From a virus (lineage: Duplodnaviria > Caudoviricetes): a stretch of 64,000 bases of DNA. Made by a program: the position numbers and the translations under genes. The notes under the pieces were generated by a model that did not search any database, was not told the origin of the DNA, and was given only the letters and a program-made list of their open reading frames with translations. The DNA is taken from the IMG/VR virus record IMGVR_UViG_2786546892_000007. One strand, given 5' to 3'. Positions within the stretch are counted from its first letter, which is position 1. Each line of letters opens with the position of its first letter. Shown in pieces: positions 17,775 to 46,096 of the stretch.

Positions 17775-18278
17775 ATGACCAGCAATTTAGTCACCTACGA
17801 AACTGCCTCAACTTTATTGAGTTATGAGCCTGAGACCGGACTCGTCCGTCGACGCAAAACGGGAAAGGTCGCTGGCACCCTGACGGACAATGGGTACATC
17901 CGCATCGTGATTCAGGGCAAAGAGCACAAGGCACATCGCCTTGCGTGGCTGTTAATGACTGGCAAATGGCCCATTCAGGTGGATCACATCAACGGTGCCC
18001 GCGCCGACAACCGGTGGATCAATTTGCGCGAGACCACCCAAGCCGAAAACACTCGGAATTGCAAACTCTACAAGTCTTCAAAGTCTGGCGTCCCGGGGGT
18101 TCATTGGAACAAGGCAAAAAAGAGGTGGCAGGTTTACATCAGTGATCGAGGCGCAATGCTTCATCTTGGATTTTTCGCGGAGTTTGATGCCGCAGTGGCG
18201 ACTCGTAAGCAGGCGGAGCGGGCTCTAAATTATCACGAAAATCACGGCAGATCAGACACAATAGGAGTATCAGCATGA
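17775..18278 (+). CDS. HNH homing endonuclease with AP2 domain
   Basis: LSYEPETG, AHRLAW, VDHINGARADNRWINLR, SGVPGVHW...HLGFF. Confidence 0.92.
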   Translation: MTSNLVTYETASTLLSYEPETGLVRRRKTGKVAGTLTDNGYIRIVIQGKEHKAHRLAWLLMTGKWPIQVDHINGARADNRWINLRETTQAENTRNCKLYKSSKSGVPGVHWNKAKKRWQVYISDRGAMLHLGFFAEFDAAVATRKQAERALNYHENHGRSDTIGVSA

Positions 18279-27830: not shown

Positions 27831-28628
27831 ATGGTTGACAGGTCGAGATATATTAAGCAGACCGACGAGGAAATCGTCACGGCGTATCAAACTCTGAAAT
27901 CTGCGGCCAAGGTTGCCAAGCATTTCGGGATTGGCGGGACAACTGTCGAGCGAATACTCAAGCGGAATAAAGTGACGCGCGATGGCAGGTCGCATTACCT
28001 TACTACCGTCCGTGCCTACACCCCCGAACAAGAATTCGAAATCGTCGCCAAGTACAGGAACGGCACTTGGGCTTCTGACCTGATTAAGGAATACGGCGGA
28101 AGCGCGTACTCAATCAATCAGGCGATAGATCGACATGGGGTTACGAAGCGACCAAACCCCTACCCCGATTTGACTTCTGACCAACTCGAAACGATCAAAC
28201 GCCTTCACGCAGACGGCATGGGGCAAACTCAAATATCCATCGAAATCAGACGCTCACAAACCTTCGTGAGCCATGCCATGAAGAAGCACGGGATAGCTCC
28301 CCACCGCCCTATGAACTACACGCACGGCATGTGGAAAGGAGGTAAGCTCCAGTCGGGCAAATATTTCGCCGTCCTGCTGGACCGGAATGACCCGTACTAT
28401 GCGATGGCTCGGTCGGGTGGTTACGTCATGGAACACCGAATCGTCATGGCGCGCCACCTCGGTCGCCCACTAACACCCACGGAAACGGTCCACCACATCA
28501 ACGGCGACTCGACTGACAACCGGATCGAAAACCTGCAACTCCGGCAAGGGAGGCACGGCAAAGGGGCCGTCGCCTACTGCGTCGATTGTGGTTCACACAA
28601 CATCGATCACAAGCCATTACCAGAATAA
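27831..28628 (+). CDS. HNH homing endonuclease with N-terminal HTH repeats
   Basis: WKGG, GYVMEHRIVMARHLGRPL..ETVHHINGDSTDNRIENL. Confidence 0.9.
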   Translation: MVDRSRYIKQTDEEIVTAYQTLKSAAKVAKHFGIGGTTVERILKRNKVTRDGRSHYLTTVRAYTPEQEFEIVAKYRNGTWASDLIKEYGGSAYSINQAIDRHGVTKRPNPYPDLTSDQLETIKRLHADGMGQTQISIEIRRSQTFVSHAMKKHGIAPHRPMNYTHGMWKGGKLQSGKYFAVLLDRNDPYYAMARSGGYVMEHRIVMARHLGRPLTPTETVHHINGDSTDNRIENLQLRQGRHGKGAVAYCVDCGSHNIDHKPLPE

Positions 28629-33127: not shown

Positions 33128-33324
33128 CCGACCCGCTCATCGAGATGATGCGGGACGCCACCTGGAGGCCAGAAGCCGCCCTGGAGCATGAGGCCGACGA
33201 GTTGTGCGAACAGGCGTATTTCGCGCTGCCGTGGATCGGGCGACTCACCGAGGAGCAGCAGGACCAAATCCTGCTCTTTGCCTTCTGCTACGCCGAACAG
33301 CGGTTGAAAAGGATTTTGACATGA
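33124..33324 (+). CDS. Hypothetical protein
   Basis: GAGGTG RBS, ATGA overlaps. Confidence 0.5.
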   Translation: MTDPLIEMMRDATWRPEAALEHEADELCEQAYFALPWIGRLTEEQQDQILLFAFCYAEQRLKRILT

Positions 33325-33770
33325 AAACGAGCCCCGCCGGAATCGCCTTCATTCAGAGCTTTGAAAAGCTTTGCCTCCAGCGCTACCAAGACTCCGTCGG
33401 TCTGTGGACGATCGGGTACGGGCACCGGATTCAACCGGGCGAGGCGTACCAACTGATTTCTCCCGAGCAGGCCGGGGCCATCTTCCTCCAAGACCTGTCG
33501 GTAGCTGAACGGGCCATCAACCAGGCCGTCGAAGTCCTCCTCTCCCAGAACGAATATGACGCCTGCGCGAGCCTTGCTTTTAACGTCGGTGCCGGGAACT
33601 TCGCTCGCAGCACCTTGGTGAAACTCCTGAACAGCGGGAACACGGCCCTCGCCGCCCAACAGTTCCTCCGCTGGGACTTCGCCGGGGGGAAGGAATCGCC
33701 CGGGCTCTGGGGCCGCCGCGTCGCCGAGAAGGTCATGTTTGAAGACGGGGTTTACACCAACCATACCTGA
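33321..33770 (+). CDS. Endolysin, GH24 lysozyme
   Basis: E-x8-D-x5-T triad (FEKLCLQRYQDSVGLWTIGYGH), FNVG, STL, GL..RR.AE. Confidence 0.95.
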   Translation: MKTSPAGIAFIQSFEKLCLQRYQDSVGLWTIGYGHRIQPGEAYQLISPEQAGAIFLQDLSVAERAINQAVEVLLSQNEYDACASLAFNVGAGNFARSTLVKLLNSGNTALAAQQFLRWDFAGGKESPGLWGRRVAEKVMFEDGVYTNHT

Positions 33771-34792: not shown

Positions 34793-35702
34793 CGGCATGA
34801 GCTACCGCCGGCGGATAGACATCAACGGGCGTCGAATTCAGCGCGAATTGCTCAGCGGGAAGGACACAGTGCCGGGCGAGGAAACGGCCCGTCAGCTTGT
34901 CTTTCTCACCGTGACGGGAATTGCGATGGGAGCCTTGGGCCTCGCGGCAGTCGCGACTGTCATGGGCTTGGGGCAGTAGCAACCAGCCGCTGCCAATCGC
35001 ACCGAAGCTCACCTTAAGCGCCCGTGAAAGCCAATTCGGAGCGCACCCCCAACACCTCCGGCTCCGCTCAGACTCAAGGATGACCCGCTAAAACGCCTTC
35101 TGCAGCGCCGCCGTCTCTGCCCCACCATCGGCGTGGGGACAGGACCGCATTTTAGCGCTATCGCGCTTGCGGCCCTGTAACCCCCACACCGACGGCGAGG
35201 CGACGACGACGGGAAGACCGACAGGGCGGAAAATGACGATGTAAAAAGATAAGACCGATGAACAGATGCCCCAGCCGCGCGAAAGCCGGCTGCGACTTTG
35301 TTGTTTCAAGTTATCACTCACCGCTCAAGTGCTGCGAATTGTCTACAGCGGTCGCGAGCTTGTCGTCGTCGAATCCGTCCCGATCGATGGGTCGATCAAG
35401 CAATGCACAGAGGAGGCAGCGAAGAAATGACACGGCGATTATCTCTTCAGAAATTTTAATGGCCAAGGCTGTCTGTTTGGCTGTAGCGACTGTAAATCGA
35501 TGCCACAGAATGTGGCGGCAAGGGCAATTGCCAAGACGGCTCTTTCGGGAGGTATCGCACTGCTCCGGAGCTTTTTCAAAATGTACTTTAAACTTAATTG
35601 GTTTCCAATATCAACTGAATGTATGTTATTTTGGGGGATTACGTATTTGACAAACCCAATCACATGATGTAGTATCGGCCTCATAAACTTAATGAGGTTG
35701 TT

Positions 35703-36614
35703 ATGTCAGTTCTTTCCGCCCCGCATTTTCACAACGAAGAAGCTGCAATCCTGCATCTTGAAAGCATCCTGTGGCCGAACGGAGCAAACTGCCCGCACTG
35801 TGGCAGCGTGGAACGGCTTAACAAGCTAAAGGGTAAGTCAGTACGTCCAGGGCTGTGGAAGTGCTATGCCTGCCGCAAACAATTCACTGTGAAGGTAGGA
35901 ACCGTGTTCGAGTCCAGCCATGTTCCAGTACATAAATGGCTGCAAGCTGCATTTCTTATGGCATCCAGCAAAAAGGGAATCAGCGCCCACCAGATTCACC
36001 GGACATTGGAAGTGCAATACAACACGGCATGGTTCATGGCACACAGGCTCCGTGAAGCAATGCGTGTGCTGAATATCGAGCCTATGGGCGGCGAAGGTTC
36101 CATTGTAGAAGCTGACGAAACCTTTGTGGGCGGTTTGGAAAAGAATAAACACGCAAGGGACAGGAAACACCAAGGTCGTGGTGCCGTTGGTAAAGAAGCC
36201 GTGTTTAGCCTCGTAGAACGCGGCGGCAGAGTCAGATCAACGCACGTTCCGTCAGTGAGCGCAGAAACACTCGGCAAGGTTATGCGTGAGCAATTATATA
36301 CTGACACGCATTTGATGACGGACGATGCAAGGCAATATATTCCACTCGGCAAGCACTTCATGATGCACGAAAGCGTCAATCATAGCATCGGTGAATACGT
36401 GCGTGGTGGAACGCATACCAACACTATTGAAGGCTATTTCTCAATTTTCAAGCGTGGGATGAAAGGCGTCTACCAGCATTGCAACGCAAAGCATCTGAAG
36501 CGGTATTTATGTGAATTTGATTTCCGTTATAACGAACGCGACACTACGGATGCGGAGCGCATGATAACTGCATTACAAGGAATCAAAGGGAAAAGACTTA
36601 CCTATCGGGCTTAA
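35703..36614 (+). CDS. IS1595 family transposase
   Basis: CPHCG...CYACRKQF zinc ribbon, VEADETFVGG, MTDD, HTNTIEGYFS, YLCEFDFRYN. Confidence 0.95.
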   Translation: MSVLSAPHFHNEEAAILHLESILWPNGANCPHCGSVERLNKLKGKSVRPGLWKCYACRKQFTVKVGTVFESSHVPVHKWLQAAFLMASSKKGISAHQIHRTLEVQYNTAWFMAHRLREAMRVLNIEPMGGEGSIVEADETFVGGLEKNKHARDRKHQGRGAVGKEAVFSLVERGGRVRSTHVPSVSAETLGKVMREQLYTDTHLMTDDARQYIPLGKHFMMHESVNHSIGEYVRGGTHTNTIEGYFSIFKRGMKGVYQHCNAKHLKRYLCEFDFRYNERDTTDAERMITALQGIKGKRLTYRA

Positions 36615-36728
36615 ACTGGGCGCAATCAAAAGGTTAAATAGAATTAATCCGTTGCTTAGTTGCAATCAATCCCTTTGCGTCAAGGGTTTCTTTATCATTT
36701 GGCTTTAAAATGATAGATATAACAAATG

Positions 36729-36755
36729 GAATGACGTTCATGCCCTGCGAAGGCC
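36729..36755. repeat. Fused copy of two segments found at 37290-37299 and 37326-37342
   Basis: GAATGACGTT + CATGCCCTGCGAAGGCC exact matches. Confidence 0.85.
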
Positions 36756-36769
36756 GACATTCCCAAGGG

Positions 36770-36845
36770 TGGTGGACCCGACCCGACTCGAACGGGCACA
36801 CGGGACTTAGTAGGAACCTGCTCTATCCAGTTGAGCTACGGGTCC
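36770..36845 (-). tRNA. tRNA-like gene, Arg-type body, anticodon ACT, mismatched anticodon stem, encoded CCA
   Basis: GGACCCG TA GCTC AACTGGATA GAGC A GGTTC CTACTAA GTCCC GTGT GCCCG TTCGAGT CGGGT CGGGTCC ACCA. Confidence 0.8.
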
Positions 36846-36857
36846 ACCGCCGACCTA

Positions 36858-37277
36858 CTAATTCAAAGATGAACTAGCAGGTATTTGTGTGGCGCTTTGT
36901 TTTGGCGCATATTCCACCAGATAGTATCTATCATTTGCCAAAGTGGCAACGCCGGCACCCTTCAATCGGCTGAGTAAAGAAGATACGGAAGCGCGATTGT
37001 ATTTGCCCCCCGACTGCGTAACTGCCTCATCAGCAATTAAGCCGTTTTCCTTGGCGTTTTGCAGATAAGTCAACACATCATACTTAATAGGGATGCGTTG
37101 CTTGCGAGCCGTGGGGTTTTCATTGGCAGCAATAATATCTGCACCTTTAGCTTCGTATTTGCGAATAGAAAACTCTAGGCCAGCCAGCTCGCCTTGCAGC
37201 TTGCTGATTTGCTCCTTTAGTTCGACCTGCCTGTCTCTAAGCGATTGCAAATACACTTTTCCTGACATGCTACTCAT
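36858..37277 (-). CDS. Coiled-coil plus winged-helix-like protein
   Basis: GGAG RBS; heptad N-terminus; NRASVSSLLSRLK..G......RYYL; ends TAG TAG. Confidence 0.75.
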   Translation of the reverse strand: MSSMSGKVYLQSLRDRQVELKEQISKLQGELAGLEFSIRKYEAKGADIIAANENPTARKQRIPIKYDVLTYLQNAKENGLIADEAVTQSGGKYNRASVSSLLSRLKGAGVATLANDRYYLVEYAPKQSATQIPASSSLN

Positions 37278-37301
37278 GTTATAACTCCAGAATGACGTTT
37301 C

Positions 37302-37385
37302 TGCTCCTGACGGGAATCGAACCCGCATGCCCTGCGAAGGCCACTGTTTTAAAGACAGATGCGTCTACCATTCCGCCACAGGAGC
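37302..37385 (-). tRNA. Leu-type class II tRNA with TTA (ochre-reading) anticodon
   Basis: GCTCCTG TG GCG GAATGGTAGA CGC A TCTGT CTTTAAA ACAGT [long variable arm] GCGGG TTCGATT CCCGT CAGGAGC A; no encoded CCA. Confidence 0.82.
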
Positions 37386-37391
37386 AGGCGC

Positions 37392-37419
37392 ATTATAACA
37401 TATATATTCTGACAAGCAA
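37392..37419 (-). promoter_or_regulatory. Sigma70 promoter of tRNA-wHTH-tRNA unit
   Basis: TTGCTT-N16-TATAAT with TG extension, 6 nt before the tRNA 5' end. Confidence 0.65.
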
Positions 37420-37431
37420 TAGGGCATCAAT

Positions 37432-37593
37432 ATGAAAAAGCGTAAGAATGACTCCGTTACGCAACGAACAAAGTTCATAGAAACAGCCCGCGCTCTAGGC
37501 TGTGAAGACAATGGAGACCGCTTTGACGCTGTTGTGAAAAAGCTGGCCGAACAGCCGCCACAGCCGCGCAAGCCCAAGAAGGGCAAGAAATGA
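37432..37593 (+). CDS. 53-aa basic protein of a type often seen beside IS1595 transposases
   Basis: Q..KFIETARALGCED...FD..VKKLA. Confidence 0.65.
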   Translation: MKKRKNDSVTQRTKFIETARALGCEDNGDRFDAVVKKLAEQPPQPRKPKKGKK

Positions 37594-37895
37594 TGCGCTG
37601 GTGCTTGATATTATTGCCGCTGCTCCTAACAGGATGCCTCGAAGATAAAGTGGCGATTCTATCTGAATGCCGATTGAAATACGACCAAGATGGAGCGGGT
37701 CAGCAAGGCGTGATGCTTTGCATGAGTGCTAAGGGTTATGAATTTGAATCAGCATGGCTGTCGCCCCACGATTACACCGCCCCTAATAAAAAATGCTGGA
37801 CTGGAAATGGGTCGTCACCGCTTCCGGTAAATCCTTCTTATGTGTTTTCTGATTGTTATAGCAAAAGATCGCTATGGAGCGTATTTAGCCATTAA
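37590..37895 (+). CDS. Cys-rich lipoprotein
   Basis: Lipobox LLTGC; CMSAKGY motif. Confidence 0.7.
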   Translation: MMRWCLILLPLLLTGCLEDKVAILSECRLKYDQDGAGQQGVMLCMSAKGYEFESAWLSPHDYTAPNKKCWTGNGSSPLPVNPSYVFSDCYSKRSLWSVFSH

Positions 37896-37979
37896 CTAGA
37901 TATTGTGGTGGGTTTGCAATCTACGCAATCCCCATATTTTGATATAAACAATAAACCTGGGCAATGGTTCTCTTACGGC

Positions 37980-38024
37980 CCGGCACAGAATCCGGCACAG
38001 AATAGGTAGCAATCGGCACGGAAT
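37980..38024 (+). repeat. Putative integrase arm-type sites
   Basis: CCGGCACAGAAT x2 tandem plus TCGGCACGGAAT, ~100 bp from att core. Confidence 0.65.
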
Positions 38025-38128
38025 GGCGCTAAAATATGGAAAGTCGCGGCAACTTTCGGCTGCCTCATATGCGGCGGAAAATCAGTGAGAATCGGTGGTT
38101 ATGGCGGAGTGGTCAGTTTCGGACCTCA

Positions 38129-38173
38129 CGACTGAAAATCGCTAGGTCCCCGGTTCAAGCCCGGGACTGCCCA
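38129..38173 (+). other. att core: 3' fragment of tRNA-Phe(GAA)
   Basis: CGACTGAAAATCGCTAGGTCCCCGGTTCAAGCCCGGGACTGCCCA has anticodon loop, T arm and 3' acceptor strand but no D arm or 5' acceptor strand. Confidence 0.85.
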
Positions 38174-38323
38174 CTGGAAATTCAAGCGTTTTGTGTCGAT
38201 TCGAGATACTCTGAACTCTGCCTAAGTCTGGCAGTGCCAGAGTAAAACCCTCGGGGAGCCTGCCAGCTACCCCGAGGGCCGAGCGGCCTTCCGGCACACC
38301 CGTGCTCCCGGAGGGTCGCGACG

Positions 38324-39556
38324 ATGTCGAAGAAGAACGGGCCGGAACCTTTTTTTCGGCCGAAAAAAAATCGCTGGTACGTCGAGGTCGGCGGTAAGCA
38401 CGTGAACCTCGGCCCGGACGAGGCGCAGGCTCGCGTCCGCTGGCACCAGATCATGGCGGGCACGCCCGCTTCCTCCCTCATCCCCGGCCAACTACCCGAC
38501 GGCGTCCTGGTCTGTCGCGTCATCGACCTGTTCGTCGGCTGGTCGCACAAGCACCGTCCCGGCCGCACGGCCGAGTGGTACCAGAAGCACCTCCAATCGT
38601 TCCTGGATTCGCTGCCCGATGCCGCCACTTTGACCGTCGACCAACTCCGGCGGTTGCACGTCACCAACTGGATCGATGCCCACGGCAACTGGGGAGCAAA
38701 CCACCGCCGCGGTGCCATCACCGCCGTCCAGCGGGCGTTCACGTGGGCGGAGCGCGAGGGGCACATCGCCAAGAGTCCCGTCCGGGGGATCGAAAAACCG
38801 CCCGCCAAACGCCGCGAGCAGGTCCTGACGATCGAGGAATTTCAGTCCCTCTTAGCCCGCATCAAAGACCCGTGCTTCCGCGACGTCCTCGAATTTTGCT
38901 GGGAGACCGGATGCCGGGTGCAGGAGATCCGTCTCATCGAAGGTCGGCATCTCCGGTTCGACCGCGGCCGCGTCGAATTTCCCCCGGAGGAAGCCAAGGG
39001 CAAAAAACGCTGGCGGTTTATTTACCTGACCCCGCGGGCCGAGGAAATCGTCCGCGCCCTGGTCGCCCGTCACAAAGTCGGGGTCATTTTCCGCAATACC
39101 GACGGCAAACCGTGGGACGCCCAGAACTTCAACAACCGCTTCTGCCGGCTCCAGCACCGGTTCGGCCGCGAGGAACTGAAGCGGAGGGGGTTCGTGCTCG
39201 ATCCCGCACGGGTGGCGGAATTCGCTGAGACGCTACACCCGAAGAAAAAGGTGGCGGGAAAAACATTTCCGAAGGCGCCCAACGAGTTGCTCCGCGAAGC
39301 CCGCAAGAAACTTACCATCAAGGCGGCGAAGAAACTCGGGACAAAATACGCCCTGACGACCATCCGCCACAGCTTCGCCACCCGGTTACTCGAAGCCGGG
39401 GTCGACCACATCACCGTCGCCGCCCTCATGGGGCACGTCGACGCCACCATGTTGAGCCGCGTTTACAGCCACGTGGGGGAGAAGACCGACTTCCTGCGCG
39501 TCGAACTGCTCAGGGCTTCAGGCGCATGTGCCGCAGGACAGGTTGGGGCGGCTTGA
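38324..39556 (+). CDS. int: Tyrosine recombinase/integrase
   Basis: ETGCRVQE, K, RHSFAT, LMGH, VYSH catalytic motifs; next to att. Confidence 0.95.
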   Translation: MSKKNGPEPFFRPKKNRWYVEVGGKHVNLGPDEAQARVRWHQIMAGTPASSLIPGQLPDGVLVCRVIDLFVGWSHKHRPGRTAEWYQKHLQSFLDSLPDAATLTVDQLRRLHVTNWIDAHGNWGANHRRGAITAVQRAFTWAEREGHIAKSPVRGIEKPPAKRREQVLTIEEFQSLLARIKDPCFRDVLEFCWETGCRVQEIRLIEGRHLRFDRGRVEFPPEEAKGKKRWRFIYLTPRAEEIVRALVARHKVGVIFRNTDGKPWDAQNFNNRFCRLQHRFGREELKRRGFVLDPARVAEFAETLHPKKKVAGKTFPKAPNELLREARKKLTIKAAKKLGTKYALTTIRHSFATRLLEAGVDHITVAALMGHVDATMLSRVYSHVGEKTDFLRVELLRASGACAAGQVGAA

Positions 39557-42932: not shown

Positions 42933-44567
42933 GTAGCTGTCTATTCTGTACGTACGGGAACGGCCTGAGAATTTCCCAGTTCAGACGCGTGCCCGCTTCT
43001 ACGAGGTAGCCATTTCGACCTTGGGAAAGATGCGATCCAGGATCGAGTCTTCCGGGCGTGGAATCTTCAGTTTGATCAGGAGATCTTCGAAGCAACTTCG
43101 CCCTGCCTCCATCCACCGCGTCACTTCCGCGATCACGCTCGCCAACGTCCACTCCGTCAAGTACAACCGCAGCGATTCCAGTACGCTCATCAGGATCGTC
43201 CGCCGCCGCGCGCCGGCCGGGGTCTTACTCGTCCGACCCGTCTTCCGCGCGTCCGCCGAACCCCGGAGGGTCCGCTCGGCTTCGTTGTTCGTCCCCGCGA
43301 CCGGGGCCGTTGCACCGTTCGGTTGCGTCACCGCCGGGGCCGTTACGAACGGGAACAATTCCTTGGCCAGCATCAACCGCATCAGTTCATTGACCAGCAG
43401 GCGGTAGTCATTCCGGCATCCGTCGCCCGGCGGTTCGTCGGCCAGCCACTGGGCCGAACACAGGTCGTACACCCGCTGTTCCAGACCCTCGACCCGGGCG
43501 GTCCGGCCGGCATCGCTCAACCGGCCGTCGTCCCGTGCCCGGCACGCCGCCCGGTAGATCTCCAGCAACCGGTCGGTGAACGTCCGGTAGCCCTCGTGGT
43601 CGGGTTCCTGCAGGGTCAGCTTAATCGCCTTGCGGAGGAGGTGCGCCCAGCACTTTTGCGCGATCGTGAAAGTCGCGTACACGGCCGCGTCGTCGCTCAC
43701 CAGAACACCCTCGAACGTCTCCGGATCGAGAATGGTCTTGAGCGTCCCGGCATCCTTGTGAACCCCGAACAGCAACACCCGGGCCTGTTCGGACAGGAAT
43801 GCCCACACGCTGTTCAGACTCCACCGGGTCTCGTCCGCGTGGACGACGGCCGCGTGGGCCAACAGGGTACACAGGGTGTCGAACTCCTTCTCCCAGTGCC
43901 GCGACAACTGGCGGAGCAAGGCGTCGGCTTGGGACTTCGGCAGCCGGAGTTGTTGGAAGAACGTCAGCACCTGGCACACTTTGTCGAACGACAGGCCGAC
44001 GCCATGGACCAGGAATGCGATCGCGACGACGATCTCGACCGCGAATTCACTGCGGCCGAACACCCCGGGGATCTGACCGTACTGGTTCTTGGGTCCGCGA
44101 TAGATCTCGTACGCGACCAGGACCGCACGCCCGCTCTCGAACCGCCACACCGGGCGGACGTGAGACCGGCGGCAGTCGGCGGGCGGGATGCCGGCCGGGA
44201 ACACCTTCTCGGTGCGTTCCGCGCGAGCGATCTTGTCCGCGGTCGTGACCCGCCCGTGTCGCTTCGGCTTCTTCCTTTTCTGGGGCTTGTTCGAACGGGC
44301 GTGTTGTCGTTGCTCTTCGGCCCGCATGGAGAACGGTTGATCGAGTTTGGCGGTCGGCGGGGTGGGGAGGTGTTGCTCAAGTTCGCGGATGCGTTGGCGA
44401 GCGGCCAGGAGTTCGGCTTGGAGGGACACGATCAGGTCGACCAGGTGTTCGGGTGACACCTTGCCCTGCCGAACGTCCTGTTTGAGCTGCTCATCCCCCA
44501 TGACGGAAAATTAGCGGCCACGGGCACATCCGGAAAGGCCCCTCAGCTGTACAGAATAGACAGCTAC
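42933..44567 (-). mobile_element. IS66-family element, single-ORF (ISBst12-like)
   Basis: IR GTAGCTGTCTATTCTGTAC; 8-bp TSD GATGCACC. Confidence 0.92.
42999..44501 (-). CDS. IS66 transposase TnpC
   Basis: HADET.W, LVSDD, QKCWAHLLR, TNNEAERTLR. Confidence 0.93.
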   Translation of the reverse strand: MGDEQLKQDVRQGKVSPEHLVDLIVSLQAELLAARQRIRELEQHLPTPPTAKLDQPFSMRAEEQRQHARSNKPQKRKKPKRHGRVTTADKIARAERTEKVFPAGIPPADCRRSHVRPVWRFESGRAVLVAYEIYRGPKNQYGQIPGVFGRSEFAVEIVVAIAFLVHGVGLSFDKVCQVLTFFQQLRLPKSQADALLRQLSRHWEKEFDTLCTLLAHAAVVHADETRWSLNSVWAFLSEQARVLLFGVHKDAGTLKTILDPETFEGVLVSDDAAVYATFTIAQKCWAHLLRKAIKLTLQEPDHEGYRTFTDRLLEIYRAACRARDDGRLSDAGRTARVEGLEQRVYDLCSAQWLADEPPGDGCRNDYRLLVNELMRLMLAKELFPFVTAPAVTQPNGATAPVAGTNNEAERTLRGSADARKTGRTSKTPAGARRRTILMSVLESLRLYLTEWTLASVIAEVTRWMEAGRSCFEDLLIKLKIPRPEDSILDRIFPKVEMATS

Positions 44568-45145: not shown

Positions 45146-46096
45146 GAGCCTGTCTGGGAAGTACTATTTTGATGCAACTCTATATTTAAATGGGGGATAA
45201 CACTTTTTGGGGTCCATGCGATTGAGGATCAATTGAATCGACCGCACTTTAACCATAGATTCACTAGAACTAGTATTTCGTTCGTAGTCCCGACTTAGCC
45301 TGCGGGCGCGACCGAGCCACCCGAAGGTCCGCTCCCCCACCCACCGCTTGGGCAACAGGACGAACCCCTTCGCCCCGTCCGGCCGGCGGACGATGACGAG
45401 TTCCCATCTGAGTTCCGGATGACCGTCCTTCCACCCGTTCAGGGCATGGTTGTGGTACTTCCCGTCGGCCCATACGACCTTCAACCGCGGGTACGCCTCA
45501 CGGTCCAACGATTCGAGCACGGACGGGGCCGCGGCCGCATCGTCGACGTGCCCGGCGGTGACCGCCACGGTCATCAACAACCCGAGCGTGTCGACCACGA
45601 TCGACCGCTTCCGGCCCTGGATTTTCTTGCCCGCGTCATACCCGTTCCCACCCGCATGCTCGGTCCCCTTGACCGACTGACTATCGATGCTCGCGGCGCT
45701 CGGGGTCGGCTCGTGACTCGGAGCATGGACCTCCCGATACCCCTCCCGGAGGACATCCAGGAGGTGTTGCCAGGTGCCGTCATCCCGCCACTGGCGAAGT
45801 ATTCGTACACCGTACTCTTGGCCGGGAAATCGTGCGGGAGCAGGGACCACTGGCACCCGGTCCGGTTCACGTACAGGATCGCGTTCATCACCTCCCGGAG
45901 GTCGACCGACCGGGGCCGCCCTCCGAACCGGGCGGCGGGCAGAAGGGGCTCGATGGTCTCCCATTGGACATCGGTCAAATCCGTCAGATACGGTTTACGA
46001 ACGGGCGCGTCCATGACCTCGCTCCTGAATGATGAAGGAGCGACTAACTTAAAGGAATCTCACGACTTACAGCAAGGGCACTTTTCGGACAGCCTC
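45146..46096 (-). mobile_element. IS5 family (IS1031-like), 951 bp
   Basis: IRs GAGCCTGTCTGGGAAGT / GAGGCTGTCCGAAAAGT; 3-bp TSD TCA. Confidence 0.9.
45164..46014 (-). pseudogene. IS5 transposase, -1 frameshift at ~45793
   Basis: [47 protein letters not shown]; one C short in GCC CAG TGG. Confidence 0.88.

Follow-up and report, generated by a model that had tools for sequence, protein, structure and literature searches.

A tRNA gene within a prophage insertion

We analysed a 64,000-nucleotide stretch of viral DNA (record IMGVR_UViG_2786546892_000007; "the window" denotes this whole stretch), in which a prediction made from the letters alone had pointed to an ochre-suppressor-type tRNA with leucine identity. 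The window holds a myovirus-like prophage with genes for the small and large terminase, portal, protease, major capsid protein, sheath, baseplate and tail fibres. The predicted gene, here called tRNA1, lies on its minus strand close to a transposase gene of the IS1595 family (Table 1). Here we describe tRNA1, the insertion sequence (IS) that carries it, the family of related tRNAs on other elements and a codon of the transposase gene that matches the tRNA anticodon.

ARAGORN calls tRNA1 a tRNA-Stop with anticodon tta (37301-37386, minus strand), and the Rfam tRNA model RF00005 aligns with positions 37302-37385 over its full length (model positions 1-71; 58.3 bits, E = 5.1e-10, with a gathering cut-off of 29 bits). 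This is the only match to that model in the whole 64-kb window that exceeds the gathering score, and the coordinates of the original prediction are confirmed. The features it had named, from the loop to the lack of an encoded CCA, are also all present in the sequence. The acceptor stem has 7 bp, U8 is present, and the D arm has a 3-bp stem and a D loop with GG. The anticodon stem (TCTGT/ACAGT) carries a mismatch in which T27 faces T43, and the 7-nt loop C-T-T-T-A-A-A presents the anticodon UUA; base 33 is U and base 37 a purine, as in an ochre suppressor. The variable region of 16 nt is long enough to form its own stem, which makes tRNA1 a class II tRNA; the T loop reads TTCGATT and the discriminator base is A73. 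GAA follows A73 in place of CCA, which is normal for this genome because the CCA end is also absent from all ten host tRNA-Leu genes compared.

Bacterial leucyl-tRNA synthetase (LeuRS) recognises A73 and the core of the tRNA and ignores the anticodon. In tRNA1, A73 is combined with a Leu-type D arm (3-bp stem, A14, A15, G18G19), the same type of D arm that its family shares with the host tRNA-Leu genes. The anticodon itself is not that of any leucine isoacceptor (NAG or YAA), and the 7-bp acceptor stem and 5-bp T stem are not the 8/4 or 9/3 geometry of allo-tRNAs. No other tRNA with a stop anticodon is found among 100 ARAGORN calls in the 12.4-Mb genome. The most similar host tRNAs reach just 67-71% identity, and a DNA search of 50,697 phage records gave five weak closest matches (79-83%), all annotated as tRNA-Leu. 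A 24-base, anticodon-free pattern found no near-identical gene in viral contigs, and none was found in 60 relatives of the host, where the only matches were generic ones between D arms and tRNA2, a second tRNA-like gene of the same element.

The loop of tRNA1 is one substitution away from that of tRNA-Leu(UAA), and the original prediction had asked for 37347-37353 to be confirmed in raw reads, because of error-prone base runs; a decayed or mis-sequenced tRNA-Leu(UAA) without function would have such a loop. Dozens of diverged homologues retain the UUA loop, which indicates a conserved lineage and not a one-step mutant, and the closest host class II tRNA is just 71% identical, which speaks against a mutated host gene. 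Re-assembled contigs agree with the window: a Logan contig of sequencing run X1 spanning 35400-38158 shows no letter differences and no gaps at a word depth of 66, although X1 is probably the source sample and this agreement is then not independent evidence. Homologues, host divergence and the Logan contig together led us to reject both a sequencing error and a mutated host gene. A further candidate, likewise functionless, is that tRNA1 represents half of an attachment site of the prophage, in keeping with the 940 bp that separate tRNA1 from the prophage integrase gene and with a partial repeat of tRNA1 nearby. The only such repeat consists of the variable arm and the trailer, 587 bp away; it represents the middle of the tRNA and not its 3' end, the part repeated at att sites, and both copies lie inside the IS, so that this candidate was also discarded. 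Overall, a functionless remnant of either kind is exceedingly improbable. A prophage recoded at TAA was rejected as well, as terminase, portal, capsid, sheath, baseplate, endolysin and integrase are all full-length under translation table 11.

tRNA1 is cargo of an IS1595-family element

IS1595 elements with passenger genes encode a DDE transposase that has a zinc ribbon at its N terminus; their terminal repeats are short, the target duplication measures 8 bp and extra genes lie between the ends. The element in the window shares this plan and has a tRNA among its passengers. Inverted repeats (35634-35658 and 37909-37933) enclose the transposase gene, both tRNA-like genes and three small open reading frames (ORFs) in an element of about 2.3 kb. 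The transposase has the zinc ribbon, and the flanking target duplication agrees in seven of eight bases. The content of guanine plus cytosine (GC) is 47.5% within the element, compared with about 60% in the flanks and 63% in the contig. The transposase, the inverted repeats, the duplication and the low GC content therefore identify tRNA1 as cargo of a 2.3-kb insertion sequence that has inserted into the prophage. The insertion site falls in an accessory region between the lysis genes and the integrase gene, and the terminal-repeat type of the element (..GATTGTATATTTGACAAACCC) also bounds related elements.

We further note that the tRNA recurs as part of a module, comprising the tRNA, an ORF for a coiled-coil/winged-helix protein (orfA), an optional second odd tRNA, a partial tRNA mimic (here copy 2) and a convergent transposase gene, which is present in 127 of 145 fetched loci. 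In relatives (for example L119, L248, L164, L116, L177 and L148), perfect 8-bp duplications and one terminal-repeat type bracket this module, and the related elements measure about 1.9-3.3 kb. Judged by these boundaries, the tRNA-bearing modules are mobile units. In viral contigs (IMG/VR), a pattern demanding a Leu-type D arm followed by the loop CTTTAAA matched 51 stretches, nine of which are long tRNA-Stop(tta) genes, the rest being chance matches or intron-containing Leu genes. A query with the window transposase returned 48 viral loci, and only one, L091, contains a family tRNA; there the transposase is followed by a 75-nt odd tRNA, an orfA homologue and the tRNA-Stop, as in the window. 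In species-representative genomes, a tighter pattern that requires the loop CTTTAAA gave 63 loci, mostly in Alphaproteobacteria (Rhodobacterales, Sphingomonadales, Acetobacteraceae, Hyphomicrobiales and Caulobacterales), with some in Gamma- and Betaproteobacteria and Oligoflexia and one in a Kofleriaceae genome. The tRNA is found in 58 of these 63 loci, an orfA match directly downstream in 35 and a transposase match, usually convergent, in 42.

The tRNA family varies its anticodon and conserves its body

Both DNA patterns demand a UUA loop, and the search for an anticodon-blind sample was therefore anchored on orfA, through the alignments A2 and A3. An earlier search of viral contigs with a single orfA protein had given 11 pattern matches and no confirmed case; the alignment-based search succeeded and yielded 73 loci. 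A long tRNA lies directly upstream of orfA in 64 of them, none in six, and a contig end cuts the remaining three. The anticodons of the 64 tRNAs are TTA (30), TCC (17), ACC (5), TGG (4) and CCA (2), with CCC, GCC, TGC, GTC, TCA and CTA once each. A leucine anticodon occurs neither in these 64 nor among 55 distinct family members. The latter come from an alignment to R1, a covariance model of the family that was built from ten members.

Against this changing anticodon, the body of the tRNA is well conserved in the 55 sequences. Standard pairs are found in 53-55 members at every position of the acceptor, D, anticodon (28-42 to 31-39) and T stems, and the variable pairs of the family show 2-5 pair types. 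A14, A15, G19, A21, T54, T55, C56, A58 and A73 are present in all 55, U8, G18 and U33 in 54 and A37 in 53. The variable region ranges from 13 to 20 nt, and C74, C75 and A76 are encoded in 41, 46 and 39 members, respectively. Many related elements have a homologous tRNA with this loop, CTTTAAA, which speaks against a read error. An anticodon that drifts freely is tolerated only with an anticodon-blind synthetase such as LeuRS. The pattern of conservation argues for a real tRNA under selection, kept for use by the ribosome and by a synthetase that would read A73 and the core and not the anticodon.

A few members depart from this pattern within the loop. L244, a UUA-type locus from a metagenome, has C33 in place of the near-universal U33 (loop CCTTAAA). 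In L232 and L188, the two members with the Pro anticodon UGG, G37 replaces the common A37 and the loops read CTTGGGT and TTTGGGT. From these two sequences, the entire anticodon loop, beyond the triplet, appears to be fitted to the codon that would be read.

A transposase codon matches the anticodon of the tRNA

The match between tRNA and transposase lies in one codon, the third after the conserved transposase motif GKRLTY in codon print-outs, which we call the gate. In the window the gate is TAA (36612-36614). Among 50 distinct UUA-type loci, the gate is TAA in 26, TAG in 23 and TTG in one (L176), so that the sole exception is itself a leucine codon. Other anticodon classes have other gates: GGA in all five UCC-type elements, GGG in the single CCC-type and TGA in the single UCA-type element. 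The transposase genes of UUA-type elements end in TAA (23) or TAG (19) and never in TGA (n = 42). For comparison, TGA closes 38 of 59 orfA genes of UUA-type elements and 15 of 42 transposase relatives in IMG/VR. In tRNA-less relatives, the gate is a sense codon (mostly ACT, CCT, GCT or TCN) in 36 of 38 distinct sequences and the frame runs several codons further; of the two remaining sequences, one belongs to L091, which bears the tRNA, and one to a truncated locus. Transposases of UCC-type elements are 56-60% identical to that of the window and those of UUA-type elements 47-63%, and UCC-type elements fall into at least two places of a quick tree of transposases, for which the thorough tree search was incomplete. 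Anticodon and codon have therefore changed together more than once.

These observations bear on whether tRNA1 might be a general suppressor or mistranslator of host or phage genes, as in stress-adaptive mistranslation, a toxin-like role or the poisoning of AT-rich invaders, with the transposase match being secondary. In 48 of the 55 distinct tRNAs, the anticodon reads a codon expected to be rare in GC-rich hosts (UAA, GGA, GGU, CCA or GCA), as such a role would predict. Moreover, by a crude count TAA closes about 32% of the long ORFs of the host (1263 of 3955), which would make host effects unavoidable if tRNA1 is expressed, and some loci (L181, L182, L183 and L188) combine a family tRNA with orfA but lack a transposase gene within 2-2.5 kb. 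In E. coli, allo-tRNAs that carry odd anticodons are toxic, and such tRNAs are located near toxin-antitoxin genes (PMC5389517). A general suppressor would nevertheless leave unexplained why one fixed transposase codon tracks the anticodon through four classes and why none of 42 transposase genes stops at TGA, and we consider it unlikely. The original prediction, in which leucine would be inserted at stop codons, is in line with the sequence evidence as to the type of tRNA; its main target would probably be the one TAA that ends the neighbouring transposase gene, and not host stop codons at large.

The gate also bears on which amino acid a working suppressor would carry. Bacterial tyrosine and serine tRNAs likewise have long variable arms, and the host tRNA most similar overall is an array-borne tRNA-Tyr (71%). 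Serine is opposed by A73, and tyrosine by the freely changing anticodon, which tyrosyl-tRNA synthetase reads. Both are opposed by the match of the D arm to host Leu genes, by the annotation of the best phage matches as tRNA-Leu and by the TTG gate of L176, and charging with either amino acid is very unlikely. Leucine identity, as first proposed, is consistent with A73 in 55 of 55 members, the host-Leu D arm, the phage matches and the free anticodon.

A private decoder is the most probable reading

We put at roughly 70% the probability that tRNA1 is a working private decoder on an IS1595-family element, by which ribosomes would pass the gate TAA and make a tailed transposase. In the proposed mechanism, a body recognised by LeuRS and bearing UUA would deliver leucine to UAA and, by wobble, to UAG. 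The main client of tRNA1, if it is expressed and charged, would be the element's own transposase, on which ribosomes would stop at the gate in its absence. At this codon tRNA1 would compete with release factor, and some ribosomes would insert leucine and go on to add the tail, which in the window would comprise eight residues. In the UCC and CCC types, competition would be with host tRNA-Gly. The tailed product would correspond to the C-terminal tail that tRNA-less relatives make constitutively, and its production would depend on an RNA that the element would co-transcribe with the winged-helix orfA. The tailed form may act in transposition as the active enzyme or as an inhibitor; the sequence is compatible with both.

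Several observations weigh against a private decoder. Some concern the window element. An extended -10 box precedes tRNA1, and the consensus promoter scan listed no tRNA1 promoter and found no good -35 box at 16-18 nt. A transposase search of the 12.4-Mb genome found just one copy of the element. The tail in the window reaches the next TAG after just eight codons; downstream of it there are more in-frame TAA and TAG codons, and the first in-frame TGA comes 32 codons past the gate. Others concern the family. Of the 55 members, 27 have a non-standard pair at 27-43, and the T-T mismatch in the window is therefore a family habit. The tail after the gate is short (3-81 codons) and not conserved across groups. 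In the Rhodobacterales group, the one group in which the tail is fixed (20 codons), the three codon positions have changed about equally often (10, 11 and 11 of 20) with no third-position excess, and the changes thus give no sign of protein-level selection on the tail. The cognate codon is not avoided elsewhere in the genes of the elements: GGA accounts for 9% of the Gly codons of UCC-type elements and for 10% of those of the UUA type, and TAA or TAG closes 21 of 59 orfA genes in UUA-type elements. Finally, the species-representative set was selected through a required CTTTAAA loop, the anticodon and gate counts are not phylogenetically independent, and the covariation covers four anticodon classes, as the fetched DNA held no transposase for TGG, ACC, CCA, TGC, GTC, GCC or CTA.

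Other components of the element and its surroundings

The ORF directly downstream of tRNA1, orfA, is predicted to form a long N-terminal helix and a C-terminal winged helix, and its homologues come after the tRNA1 counterpart in related elements. None of orfA, orfB and orfC has a Pfam or PHROG match, and a Foldseek comparison of the orfA model with PDB gave nothing at E <= 0.001 and only generic winged helices. Within the module, orfA is probably the regulator. Readthrough of orfA itself has no support, as its homologues show no consistent stop codon and no conserved extension. Look-alikes of orfB occur in eight of the 63 genome loci.

The second tRNA-like gene, tRNA2, has two mismatches in its anticodon stem in the window and scores under the Rfam gathering threshold; its nearest host tRNAs are Arg tct/cct (72%). 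The gene follows orfA in many elements, with homologues in L112, L116, L121, L129, L130, L139, L149, L151, L167, L170, L174, L177, L180 and metagenome loci. Their anticodons differ among elements (GCT, ACT, CGT, AGT, GGT, GTC, CCG, TCG, ACA, TGC and ACC). Inspection by eye of the codons after the gate in three elements revealed no partner codon for tRNA2.

Copy 2 repeats part of tRNA1, with exact identity over 17 nt (36739-36755 equal to 37326-37342). In the window it comprises the variable arm and the 3' trailer only. In relatives it consists of the 3' strand of the D stem, the anticodon stem with a tetraloop in place of the loop, and the variable arm, and there a distance of 0.5-0.8 kb separates it from tRNA1, which lies upstream and has the same orientation. 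It lacks the T arm and the acceptor. Seen along the transposase strand, copy 2 is located 88-240 nt past the gate, from which a terminator-like hairpin separates it in the window. An exact match of at least 11 nt to the variable arm of the same element is found in 62 of 93 elements, compared with five of 735 cross-element pairs.

This close tie between copy 2 and its own tRNA, and the position of copy 2 near the gate on the opposite strand, would suit a tRNA-shaped regulatory RNA that does not decode at all and whose anticodon and variable arm bind the transposase transcript or the orfA protein, with copy 2 as a mimic or competitor. The frequent 27-43 mismatch would fit as well, and some allo-tRNAs are apparently unused in translation (PMC5389517). 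A regulatory RNA would, on the other hand, have no need for a cognate codon that is always in frame and at one protein position. The family also keeps the invariants of a tRNA used in translation (T54-T55-C56, U33 in 54 of 55, A37 in 53 of 55, A73 in 55 of 55 and a mostly encoded CCA), and L176 has a Leu codon in place of the gate. For these reasons we hold a purely regulatory role to be improbable, and a private decoder remains the preferred reading.

Table 1. Features of the IS1595-family element and of neighbouring prophage genes in the window.
Feature	Position	Strand	Basis and remarks
Endolysin	33204-33770		Prophage gene
Left target-site duplication, TTATTTTG	35626-35633		Read; 7/8 bases equal to 37934-37941
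Left terminal inverted repeat	35634-35658	plus	Repeat search; 25 nt, 80% complementary to 37909-37933
Promoter-like site for transposase, TTGACA-17-TAGTAT, inside left repeat	35647-35675	plus	Consensus scan 10/12; pattern match only
IS1595-family DDE transposase, 303 aa, closed by TAA 36612-36614	35703-36614	plus	Pfam DDE_Tnp_IS1595 1.9e-38, Zn_ribbon_IS1595 1.2e-13
In-frame readthrough tail, 8 sense codons then TAG	36615-36641	plus	Codon print-out
Terminator-like hairpin and T run, 3' of transposase	36672-36696	plus	Consensus scan; pattern match only
Copy 2, hairpin repeating the tRNA1 variable arm, fused to a copy of the tRNA1 3' trailer	36729-36765	minus	Repeat search, fold
tRNA2, class I tRNA-like, Arg-like body, anticodon ACT, encoded CCA	36770-36845	minus	ARAGORN "Ser act"
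orfA, 139 aa, long N-terminal helix and C-terminal winged helix	36858-37277	minus	AlphaFold model; predicted local distance difference test (pLDDT) 86.4
tRNA1, Leu-type class II tRNA gene, anticodon UUA	37302-37385	minus	ARAGORN, Rfam, reading of sequence; 93.3 bits to family model R1
Extended -10 box, TGnTATAAT	37392-37400	minus	6 nt upstream of tRNA1 base 1; read by eye
orfB and orfC, small divergent ORFs inside the element	37432-37593 and 37590-37895	plus	ORF list
Right terminal inverted repeat	37909-37933	minus	Repeat search and reading
Right target-site duplication, ATATTTTG	37934-37941		Read
Tyrosine integrase	38324-39556		Prophage gene

In run X1, the Logan contig that holds the IS (35209-38158) has a word depth of 66, compared with 31-43 for neighbouring contigs, and several X1 contigs meet at 38129-38175; GC bias, a collapsed second copy or structural variation could produce this. 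Run X2, with a small share, gave only short, diverged transposase-like pieces, and no RNA run with the element was listed. Between the end of the IS and the integrase gene there is an exact 12-nt tandem duplication (CCGGCACAGAAT twice, 37980-38003). Just past the integrase gene lie an IS66-family transposase gene (42999-44501, minus) and a transposase-like gene (45164-45964, minus); with these two further transposase genes, this end of the prophage is therefore an insertion hotspot. Two HNH endonuclease genes (17775-18278 and 27831-28628) are found among the tail and baseplate genes. Elsewhere in the genome there are two dense tRNA arrays (G000 C4:281282-283409 with about 25 genes and C17:218190-218935 with about 10), among whose genes are 74-75-nt "Leu" tRNAs that lack a long variable arm, as well as an 83-nt Tyr.

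Relation to known systems

The output of IS1- and IS3-family transposases is set by programmed frameshifting near a fixed site, with host tRNAs and a slippery sequence. A gate read by tRNA1 would be a functional analogue of this control, with the difference that the IS1595 element supplies its own decoding tRNA. Laboratory ochre suppressors also place UUA on a class II tRNA-Leu or tRNA-Tyr body and read UAA and UAG; these are single mutations of host genes, unlike tRNA1, which belongs to a conserved natural lineage on a mobile element.

Phages with suppressor tRNAs recode TAG or TGA across many late genes, TAA suppressors being only tabulated (Borges et al., bioRxiv 10.1101/2021.08.26.457843). 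As in those phages, a mobile element supplies a suppressor tRNA while its own genes hold the corresponding stop, an arrangement described there as giving control over the timing of completion. The elements described here differ from those phages in that the carrier is an IS, a single codon is concerned, sense codons (GGA, GGG) are possible and the prophage genes use the standard code.

A second comparison is with allo-tRNAs, whose cloverleaves are of the 8/4 or 9/3 type, whose identity is Ser or Ala and which come mostly from Acidobacteria (Mukai et al. 2017, PMC5389517). These tRNAs and the polycistrons of irregular tRNAs resemble the present family in their long arm, an anticodon-blind synthetase and many non-cognate anticodons, including one for UAA. 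They also lie beside toxin-antitoxin or transposon genes, sometimes with a tandem second odd tRNA with GGU or GCU anticodons. The IS1595-borne family is distinct from those allo-tRNAs in its 7/5 cloverleaf, Leu-type body, A73 and mostly proteobacterial hosts. A partner codon is identified for the IS1595 family, and none is given in the consulted main text of PMC5389517. Similarly, tRNAProX/ProRSx of Streptomyces is a natural bacterial tRNA in which the body is that of one amino acid and the anticodon that of another; it has a Pro body, a dedicated extra synthetase, a chromosomal location and no link to a transposase codon (PMC11415595).

Implications for the IS1595 family

In the literature consulted, with ISfinder, subscription journals and the supplements of PMC5389517 outside its scope, we found no tRNA on an IS1595-type element and no transposase gated by an element-encoded tRNA. 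A broader proposal, for and against which we see evenly matched odds, is that a family of IS1595 transposons carries an orthogonal tRNA/codon switch, with a swappable anticodon (UUA, UCA, UCC, CCC and probably more) and a matching lock codon close to the transposase end, in which a stop or Gly codon would be read as leucine solely to the element's benefit and the switch would be tuned by a co-evolving copy 2 and the winged-helix protein. This would amount to sense-codon reassignment as a means of regulation.

If the private-decoder reading is correct, these transposons would control themselves in a new manner, through their own decoder for one transposase codon, and not through frameshifting or host factors. 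For annotation, a "tRNA-Sup" or a long "tRNA-Gly/Pro" beside an IS1595 transposase would then be neither noise nor the mark of a recoded genome. The family would further be a large natural source of Leu-type tRNAs with swapped anticodons that coexist with living cells, among them suppressors of UAA, UAG and UGA and missense decoders of Gly, Pro and Trp codons. Such a source would be of use for understanding the evolution of the genetic code and for code-expansion tools.

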